This document shows, in pieces, positions 63,221 through 63,698 of a stretch of 64,000 nt of DNA. The stretch spans positions 9,714-73,713 of the forward strand of contig CAZBPC010000008.1 of NCBI GenBank assembly GCA_964493715.1. Reading direction: 5' to 3'. Positions within the stretch are counted from its first letter, which is position 1; every line of letters begins with the position of its first letter. A model generated the notes under the pieces. That model was not told where the DNA came from. It saw only the letters and a list, made by a program, of their open reading frames with translations, and made no database searches. The DNA comes from an uncultured archaeon (lineage in GTDB: Archaea; Asgardarchaeota; Lokiarchaeia; Sigyniarchaeales; SOKP01). The translations under genes and the position numbers were made by a program.

Positions 63221-63331
63221 GATTCATCCGGTAAAATAAAGAATGTTTCTGTATGATGAATGATTATTATTGCTACCTTAAAAAAATTATTACTTAAAAT
63301 TGGAAGTTCAATAATAGAATAATATTAGCAC

Positions 63332-63523
63332 TTTAACCACAAAAACTTCCAGATCGTAGCGAGACCGGGTATTTTCCTTGGAGACCATGACCGTAAGCGA
63401 ACTTACAGCTTGAAAGTTCCCACAAATTGAAATTGAAGTACTATTTTCAACGCCAACAAGTTTAACTTCCGGGTTCGGATGGTTCCGGCGCTATGCGAAG
63501 CGCGTGGAAATTTTGTGGTTAAA
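63332..63523 (-). repeat. Processing stem (inverted repeat plus BHB-like motif) enclosing the permuted 5S
   Basis: TTTAACCACAAAATTTCCA (63523-63505) pairs with TGGAAGTTTTTGTGGTTAAA (63351-63332); TAGCG/CGCTA outer helix, CCGG/CCGG central helix, bulges AAC and TCT. Confidence 0.85.
63363..63482 (-). rRNA. rrf: Circularly permuted 5S rRNA (predicted 120-nt circular mature form)
   Basis: Minus strand reads CCATCCGAACCCGGAAGTTAAACTTG...AGTAC...GGGAAC...GCTGTAAG-TTCG-CTTACGGTCATGG...GGAAAATACCCGGTC: the 5S 3' half comes first and the 5' half second. Confidence 0.88.
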
Positions 63524-63698
63524 ATTACCACCTCTAACCACTTACTAAGCTCGGCTATTTTATGATTAAATGCTTTACTTATTTGGTTATGAGTAGGTAG
63601 AAATAATAAGAGCTAGTAATTAAAGTTTACCATCATGAAAGGTTAAATTTAAAAGGAATAATAAACCACGCACTAAATAGGTTCTCCGTGTATCAATT

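Follow-up and report, generated by a model that had tools for sequence, protein, structure and literature searches.

How can 5S ribosomal RNA (rRNA) be obtained from a gene that encodes the 3' two-thirds of the molecule ahead of its 5' third? The question is raised by a locus at positions 63332 to 63523 of a 64,000-nucleotide (nt) stretch of DNA from an uncultured Asgard archaeon of the Lokiarchaeia (assembly GCA_964493715.1, contig CAZBPC010000008.1), the whole of which is referred to here as the window. A permuted 5S rRNA gene lies there on the minus strand. Of all the rRNAs, 5S is regarded as the most uniform, and it has been described as "essentially constant" (PMC7594248). The permuted gene cannot yield the 5S fold without cleavage and ligation, and products of exactly such cleavage and ligation are present in environmental transcriptomes. 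We hold with high confidence that the sole 5S gene of this organism is permuted, and that its product is excised by cutting at a bulge-helix-bulge (BHB) motif and joined to a 120-nt circle with the 5S fold.

A conserved 5S rRNA gene in permuted order

On the minus strand the 5S sequence is divided as follows; X1, X2, X3 and X9 denote RNA sequencing runs, and the numbers given to loci (L), genomes (G), contigs (C) and families (f) are our own.

63363-63482, minus strand: excised unit, a complete 5S in circularly permuted order, 120 nt long; its circular joint occurs in X3, its wrap-around ends in X9, and it is skipped in X2
63402-63482, minus strand: 5S 3' portion, identified by cmscan to RF00001, by nhmmer (hidden Markov model (HMM) positions 35-114) and by covariation in helices II, IV, V and I
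63398-63401, minus strand: UUCG tetraloop capping helix I where the normal 5S ends sit, seen in the sequence and paralleled by YNCG caps in relatives
63363-63397, minus strand: 5S 5' portion, placed downstream of the 3' portion by nhmmer (HMM positions 3-31) and by the alignment of relatives

The 3' portion holds the 3' part of loop C, the 3' strand of helix III, loop B and the 3' strand of helix II, together with helix V, loop E, helix IV, loop D and the 3' strand of helix I. The 5' portion holds the 5' strand of helix I, loop A, the 5' strand of helix II, loop B, the 5' strand of helix III and the first two bases on the loop C side. When the unit is re-opened at the helix I cap, all 5S domains are present and collinear with canonical 5S. 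The gene order and every sequence feature listed in the original prediction, which a model had made from the sequence alone, are thus found where that prediction placed them.

In its genomic order, the locus was scored by the standard covariance model (RF00001, cmscan) at 25.5 bits over 63400-63511 of the minus strand, with only the 3' part aligned well; no full-length match reached the gathering score of 38 bits. A score below threshold is expected of a permuted gene, and it bears out the earlier claim that standard rRNA finders would miss this one. The arrangement was then examined with an HMM built from nine canonical 5S genes of a sister family, run by nhmmer on the genomic and on the re-ordered sequence. 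The genomic order matched model positions 35-114 at 34.2 bits and after them positions 3-31 at -0.2 bits, whereas the re-ordered 120-mer gave a single match spanning positions 4-113 at 47.1 bits. This pattern, of swapped pieces against one piece, was identical in all 21 genus sequences tested.

The structure of the permuted core is under evident constraint. In an alignment of 26 sequences, the 5S helices pair in 91.8% of cells, a figure that drops to 37-42% if the 3' partner is shifted along; both sides have changed in 19 of the 30 pairs, and the covariation score was matched by none of 500 shuffles. Helices I, II, IV and V are maintained by compensatory change, with helix I pairing in 99.0% of cells and five of its eight pairs changing on both sides. 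Given the order of the HMM matches, the extent of pairing, the double-sided changes and covariation beyond that of shuffled alignments, the locus is a permuted 5S gene that is conserved and under structural constraint.

It is also the only 5S rRNA gene of the organism. The genome is 100% complete (160 contigs), and a search with RF00001 at E values up to 10 found no other 5S in it; a canonical linear gene elsewhere, which had been named as a finding that would overturn the proposal, was looked for with this model and is absent from the result. A covariance model of the permuted core, termed R1, matches a single locus in the genome.

Cutting and joining at the bulge-helix-bulge motif

The two strands of the motif flank the excised unit.

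63482-63493, minus strand: BHB 5' strand, with outer helix UAGCG (63493-63489), central helix CCGG (63488-63485) and bulge AAC (63484-63482), from the sequence, a scan and relatives
63357-63368, minus strand: BHB 3' strand, with central helix CCGG (63368-63365), bulge UCU (63364-63362) and outer helix CGCUA (63361-63357), from the sequence, a scan and relatives

Two 3-nt bulges thus stand on opposite strands around a 4-bp helix. A blind scan of 63280-63600 for BHB geometry returned 20 candidates, among which the predicted one alone has four G-C central pairs. In relatives, four central pairs and 3-nt bulges occur in all 37 distinct flank sets. The outer helix averages 5.84 bp across these sets, versus 1.29 bp when flanks are crossed between lineages (n=936); its first three positions exchange among G-C, C-G, A-U and U-A, and it reaches 7-16 bp in lineages outside the family. 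The same blind scan ranked a junction consistent with 5S first in 14 of 21 loci of other lineages. In this simple scan, a 5S-consistent top candidate was missing in the remaining 7 of 21 loci, namely G026, G027, G029, G031 and three loci of family f1; the three f1 failures have short or 3-bp central helices, and all seven loci are permuted in order despite the failure of the scan. The motif is accordingly present exactly where it had been predicted, with the helices and bulges then described, and it is backed by the scan and by the 37 flank sets.

Evidence that the motif is cut and that the products are joined comes from RNA libraries. The 401 nt of 63250-63650 served as the query; its words occur in 24 listed runs, of which 22, from 14 studies, are recorded as RNA. 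Most of these runs contain a fraction of 0.26 of the words, approximately the share of 120 nt in the 401-nt query. For 4 of the 24 runs, each from a different study (X1, X2, X3 and X9), contigs, all of them assembled, were compared with the locus, and in all four runs contigs lie on it; in the other 20 runs the fraction of words is 0.14-0.26, which we do not take as evidence of habitat or of the circle. A 150-nt contig in X3 carries the joint from 63482 to 63363, a step of 120 nt backwards, and also runs through the UUCG loop; 150 nt equals 120 plus 30, the shape of a closed cycle in an assembly with k=31. In X9, a contig of 150 nt spans exactly 63363-63482, and both of its loose ends are wrap-around sequence. 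The complementary product is seen in X2, where a 99-nt contig joins 63362 to 63483 and skips exactly 120 nt, as is expected of a leader ligated to a trailer; the same run holds one contig that starts exactly at 63483 and another that crosses the 5' cut site unprocessed. Unprocessed leader and 5S occur in one piece (63365-63580) in X1.

Neither joint, 63482 to 63363 for the circle or 63362 to 63483 for the flanks, has any positional ambiguity. The 5' cut therefore falls between 63483 and 63482, in agreement with both the X2 contig terminus at exactly 63483 and the contig joints, and the 3' cut is placed by the joints between 63363 and 63362. Cutting after the second bulge base, followed by ligation of both products, is thus what the RNA-library contigs contain: the circular junction in two runs from two studies, and the leader-trailer joint in one run from a third. 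A leader-trailer joint lacking exactly 120 nt is hard to explain by DNA. Several elements of the original prediction meet here. It had applied the EndA cutting rule to obtain an excised length of exactly 120 nt, and that length holds, the same stretch being found in the RNA contigs; both cuts and the circular junction that it expected are seen exactly in those contigs; and a lack of junction-spanning sequences, which it had regarded as fatal, is contradicted by X3 and X9. Its claim that ligation would rebuild loop C is likewise upheld, since the rebuilt sequence equals the contiguous loop C of relatives in which the gene is broken elsewhere.

Three further features lie outside the motif.

63505-63522, minus strand: 5' strand (leader) of the terminal processing stem, from the minimum free energy (MFE) and centroid folds and the equivalent stem in relatives
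63333-63351, minus strand: 3' strand (trailer) of the terminal processing stem, from the fold; the trailer is joined to the leader in the X2 contig
63280-63286, minus strand: run of seven T downstream of the trailer, from the sequence; the trailer part in X2 stops at 63294, just before the run

The terminal stem, which had been put at about 19 bp, is present in the fold and measures 18 bp (63522-63505 with 63351-63333); its equivalent in relatives reads AACCAC.../...GTGGTT. Folded as a single sequence, the precursor has an MFE of -61.9 kcal/mol (z -4.27), with none of 200 shuffles equally stable. Between the long stem and the BHB lies a small GC-rich hairpin-forming segment (63490-63503, minus strand), which competes with the BHB outer helix in the MFE fold; the leaders of relatives have an equivalent hairpin of other sequence (e.g. 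GUGC...GCAC or GUAGC...GCUAC). The seven-T run is likely an archaeal transcription stop, judging by its sequence. Upstream of the leader, at 63556-63580 on the minus strand, there is a conserved A/T-rich box with the genus consensus AAAGCATTTTA..ATAA.ATAGCC, similar to a transcription factor B recognition element (BRE) with a TATA box. We do not claim the A/T-rich box at ~63556-63570 as a TATA box, and RNA-library contigs cross it. Neighboring open reading frames have either no Pfam match or PAS domains. By Rfam scan, nothing in the window scores above threshold apart from a tRNA-Pro ~36 kb from the locus, and no 16S or 23S match was found.

Distribution and variation among Asgard archaea

A blastn search located the permuted gene in 21 of the 24 other genus members; the 16 genomes searched from three other families gave no match. 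Model R1 reaches further, matching in 116 of 129 genomes of the family, in the one genome of f3 (1/1) and in three of the four of f4; among 14 genomes of f2 it gave one weak match, which is a canonical gene. Because the order is shared by 21 of 24 genus genomes and 116 of 129 family genomes, an assembly artefact is excluded as its source. With RF00001, 9 of the 11 genomes examined from the sister family f2 score at or above the cut-off, and only one genome of the genus does. That sole above-threshold 5S of the genus (L041, on contig C263 of G015) lies 44 nt after a bacterial-type 23S, which scores 1396 bits with the bacterial large subunit model; because of this adjoining gene the contig is regarded as a contaminant, and L041 was rejected as a genuine canonical 5S of the genus.

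In a sample of 151 genomes across the phylum, R1 matched in 39, from family f1 and from nine further families (f5, f6, f8, f10, f15, f17, f21, f23 and f24), and RF00001 reached its cut-off in 49, from families f2, f9, f12, f14, f18, f27 and f28; the two sets of families do not overlap. Neither an R1 match nor an above-cut-off RF00001 match was obtained for 63 of the 151. A permissive search of five of these 63 gave an RF00001 match below threshold in every one; four sub-threshold cases were inspected (two from f7, one from f19 and one from f15) and are permuted too, while G162 of family f16 scored 14.6 bits with RF00001. Under strict filters R1 had missed the permuted genes in f7, f19 and f15 that permissive RF00001 later found, and 39 of 151 is therefore a lower bound. 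All 20 regions taken from other lineages are permuted, one of them on a closed 1.42-Mb chromosome, and the small-genome family f5 (1.3-1.4 Mb, one genome closed) is among the permuted-5S families. The original prediction had called for a check on whether other Asgard genomes share the order and lack a linear 5S: the order is widespread and is disjoint from the families with canonical 5S. The prediction had also treated the phenomenon as one of "this lineage". Its scope is far wider, and the loop C break seen in the window is a minority variant.

The permuted gene was also recovered without a full-length model. A contig scan with the pattern helix I 3' strand, cap, helix I 5' strand yielded 46 loci, of which 36 have a permuted gene. 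Nearly all of the 36 bear the record title Promethearchaeota archaeon or Promethearchaeia archaeon. Both names belong, according to NCBI, to the kingdom Promethearchaeati, and we take them to be the current names for Asgard and Lokiarchaeia. The other 10 of the 46 were discarded as bacterial chance matches, about the number expected for a degenerate pattern by a rough estimate. Some titles disagree with the sequence they head. The permuted 5S of the genus type occurs at L090, whose title is Candidatus Nanopelagicaceae bacterium, and at L068, L086, L100 and L109, whose titles name Hermod-, Odin- or Hodarchaeota; this is likely a matter of mis-binning or loose labelling. Two permuted 5S copies (L175 and L181) lie ~350 kb apart in G172, a closed genome of family f7; they score 31 and 25.2 bits, below the Rfam cut-off, and strict-filter R1 missed both.

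The position of the break varies. The commonest lies in loop B, in at least 15 families of the phylum, and in most lineages on the 3' side of that loop; the loop C break of the window occurs in 8 of ~49 distinct family sequences. Relatives broken at loop B have an uninterrupted loop C, identical in sequence to the one restored by ligation in the window. Other breaks, on the 5' side of loop B or beside the 3' strand of helix II, occur at L042 (G026, f3) and at L043, L168 and L169 (f4). One locus (L004/L101, contig C215 of G006) has a loop-B-break gene with a loop C insert nested within what is left of the leader and trailer of a gene broken at loop C, as in the window, the trailer remnant lying ~100 nt downstream, which suggests that one permutation type was replaced by another through recombination.

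Many relatives carry an extra insert of ~30 nt in the permuted 5S, and their excised lengths are 149-152 nt versus 119-125 nt. The inserts lie in loop C (L005, L012, L014, L015, L021, L066 and L167), in helix IV or loop D (L022, L023 and L068), just after the 5' cut (L166 and L177) or in helix I (L173). By eye, those of loop C and helix IV have a flanking 4-bp helix and 3-nt bulges of their own, and removal of the insert restores the sequence of an intron-less relative (L066 versus L065; L022 versus L006). As far as sequence can tell, the inserts resemble BHB introns, here interrupting the gene for 5S rRNA; the literature searched gave no account of introns of this kind.

On helix I, YNCG loops account for 31 of 43 distinct caps, and UUCG for 21 of these, a prevalence that argues for a lasting helix I hairpin. 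Helix I itself is 1-2 bp shorter than in canonical relatives.

Maturation, its rivals and known systems

The genome (G000) encodes two paralogs of the splicing endonuclease EndA, on contigs C5 and C58, of 207 and 205 aa and 30% identical, each with N-terminal and catalytic domains. The first is nearest to the B chains of PDB 3p1z and 3ajv, which are crenarchaeal heterotetramers, and the second, by eye, appears to have no histidine at the catalytic position; together they probably form an (alpha-beta)2 enzyme. The parts of PMC5829648 concerned with such enzymes assign the L1-loop (alpha-beta)2 EndA to Asgard archaea with a broad substrate range, and report that these enzymes cut relaxed motifs and are linked to disrupted tRNA genes. 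The ligase RtcB is also encoded (484.5 bits), by a gene at 1498-3032 of L063 (contig C2 of G000) in which the first 47 profile positions lie in the upstream open reading frame. We infer that EndA and RtcB act on the 5S precursor.

The maturation that we propose would proceed as follows. A stand-alone precursor of ~290 nt would be transcribed from the minus strand, and its leader and trailer would pair into a long stem that presents the relaxed BHB. EndA would cut after the second base of each bulge, and RtcB would ligate the ends of the excised 120 nt, closing loop C. The product would be covalently closed and would have the complete fold of 5S, with helix I capped by UUCG and no free ends, and ligation of leader to trailer would be a by-product.

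Several observations weigh against this proposal. Of the two helices that flank a complete BHB, the outer one (h) has 5 bp here and the inner one (h') has 0 bp; because h' is missing, the BHB in the window is the relaxed hBH form. The circular MFE fold of the 120-mer is without helices II and III and is not beyond shuffles (z -0.79), and the single-sequence fold of the precursor gives the terminal stem and the helix I hairpin but pairs the BHB bases otherwise. Since folding recovers neither the BHB nor helices II and III, the comparative evidence is relied on instead. RtcB is encoded in two overlapping reading frames, of 421 aa and 115 aa, which may reflect a frameshift, an assembly error or a real split. 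The circular joint is present in only two of the four runs compared, and the contigs of X1 and X2 extend upstream to 63580 and 63564, across the A/T-rich box; their reach may mean a start other than the box assumed to be the promoter, DNA, or read-through. Assembled contigs, moreover, give no information on the ends, the strand or the abundance of an RNA, and some DNA may be present in RNA libraries.

This last point, like the Rfam score below cut-off and the position of the locus ~480 nt from a contig end, would suit a rearranged pseudogene or an assembly artefact, with junction contigs derived from a tandem DNA repeat or from the libraries themselves. Such an origin is extremely improbable. 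The order recurs in 116 of 129 family genomes, closed ones included, and in other families; covariation is strong and compensatory; the genome has no other 5S; and a leader-trailer joint lacking exactly 120 nt is impossible from a tandem repeat. We consider the interpretation supported up to the formation of the circle. What the ribosome receives is a separate question. The working form might be an unligated, linear permuted 5S nicked in loop C, with circular junctions as a minor side product: contig depth is no measure of abundance, and in brown algae the mitochondrial 5S is functional with its ends in other positions, according to the account in PMC4267664. The break, however, moves among loop C, the 3' side of loop B and the 5' side of loop B while the re-joined sequence stays canonical, as would be expected only if selection acted on the joined product. 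Ligation at the BHB is active, as the flank-joined contig indicates, and the bases of loop C, a protein-binding site, closely match the RF00001 consensus in the cmscan alignment. A nicked working form is accordingly very unlikely.

A more serious alternative, though still an unlikely one, takes the circle as an intermediate that some nuclease re-opens at or near the UUCG cap to give a linear ribosomal 5S of ~116 nt. The contigs are compatible with a linear majority species, and re-opening is the route reportedly taken by the permuted tRNA genes of Cyanidioschyzon merolae. The linker, on the other hand, is only 4 nt and mostly a stable YNCG loop (31 of 43), with no room for end-processing signals; with helix I shortened by 1-2 bp, an opened loop would leave a weak helix; and the contigs of X3 and X9 are closed cycles of 120 plus 30 nt that pass through the UUCG loop. 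A circular rRNA in the ribosome also has a precedent, in the mature circular 23S reported from archaeal ribosomes in the portions of PMC12918454 that treat it. For permuted tRNA precursors of C. merolae, the relevant passage of PMC4267664 describes cleavage followed by ligation of the pieces in the correct order. On the strength of the stable YNCG-class bridge of 4 nt, the closed contigs through the loop and the circular 23S precedent, we favor the circle itself, with some reserve, as the form present in the ribosome.

Extended to the phylum, the reading becomes a cautious one, to which we incline only a little. It holds that across much of the Asgard phylum the working ribosomal 5S would be a covalently closed circle made by the tRNA-splicing machinery; that the permuted gene would be that of this family, of f5 and of at least a dozen further families; and that the 5S gene would behave as disrupted tRNA genes do, its break migrating between loops B and C and BHB introns of 30 nt being gained and lost. 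If true, 5S would be the first known case of a universal rRNA whose very existence depends on splicing-type ligation, and the 5S "missing" from most Asgard genome annotations would be explained. For annotation, standard models score permuted genes below threshold, and with only 49 of 151 phylum genomes reaching the Rfam cut-off, "5S absent" in Asgard quality reports is often an artefact; model R1 recovers genes that standard models miss. The presence of a natural circular 5S in the ribosome becomes a directly testable question, and breaks and introns that are still shifting among close relatives offer a live system for the origin of permuted and split RNA genes.

The closest known systems are the permuted tRNA genes of C. 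merolae, Thermofilum pendens and other archaea. They too have the 3' half upstream in one transcript and a BHB-type motif formed by leader and trailer, from which excision and ligation give a circular RNA, and their hosts' splicing endonuclease is described in the pertinent parts of PMC5829648 as accepting relaxed motifs (see also the references of PMC4267664). The features that define this type, a 3' half upstream, natural ends bridged by a linker and a circular RNA formed, are all found at the 5S locus. The differences are that the RNA there is a tRNA and that its spacer is later removed by RNase P and tRNase Z. In the 5S, by contrast, the ends are bridged by a stable 4-nt loop and the break point varies between related lineages; with a stable bridge in place of a removable spacer, the circle may be the end product. 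The SRP (signal recognition particle) RNA gene of Thermoproteus is likewise permuted and matures through BHB cleavage and ligation into a circle. It concerns a different RNA and is known from one crenarchaeal group, whereas the permuted 5S spans many Asgard families.

Other systems share the circle or the permutation and differ in how it arises. Archaeal 16S and 23S rRNAs are also circularized through a BHB in a processing stem, with cleavage by EndA and ligation by RtcB, and in some archaea the circular or permuted form is that of the ribosome. Their genes are nevertheless collinear and permuted only at the RNA level; here the gene is permuted and ligation rebuilds an internal loop. According to the background section of PMC12918454, excision and circularization apply to archaeal 16S and 23S but not to 5S. 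Low-level covalently closed RNAs containing 5S are described from Sulfolobus, Pyrococcus and Halobacterium in sections of PMC12558985 and bioRxiv 10.64898/2026.03.23.713588, which attribute them to collinear genes, with variable junctions and without BHB, and read them as intermediates or decay products.

The mitochondrial 5S of brown algae and other stramenopiles (Valach et al. 2014, PMC4267664) resembles the present gene in that its termini lie away from the end of helix I and in that the standard covariance model missed it until a dedicated one was made. As described in the portion of PMC4267664 devoted to it, a hairpin replaces its helix I, its termini sit at the three-way junction, and its end product is linear and permuted, formed without BHB or ligation. 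The gene of the window does not fit this permuted mitochondrial type (mtPerm-5S), for its helix I keeps both strands and is capped, and the break in loop C is re-sealed. A circularly permuted E. coli 5S has been engineered which, by the account of it in PMC7283268, has the natural ends joined and new ends elsewhere and works in the ribosome; this laboratory construct is part of a fusion with 23S rRNA and is not circular. The original prediction knew of no genomically permuted 5S gene, and we found no report of an archaeal one in the literature searched, the coverage of which is incomplete, so that prior publication is possible. The mechanism, a permuted RNA gene matured by BHB splicing, is already known; what differs is the RNA concerned, the rebuilding by ligation of an internal loop in an essential rRNA, the probably circular end state and the wide spread through a phylum.

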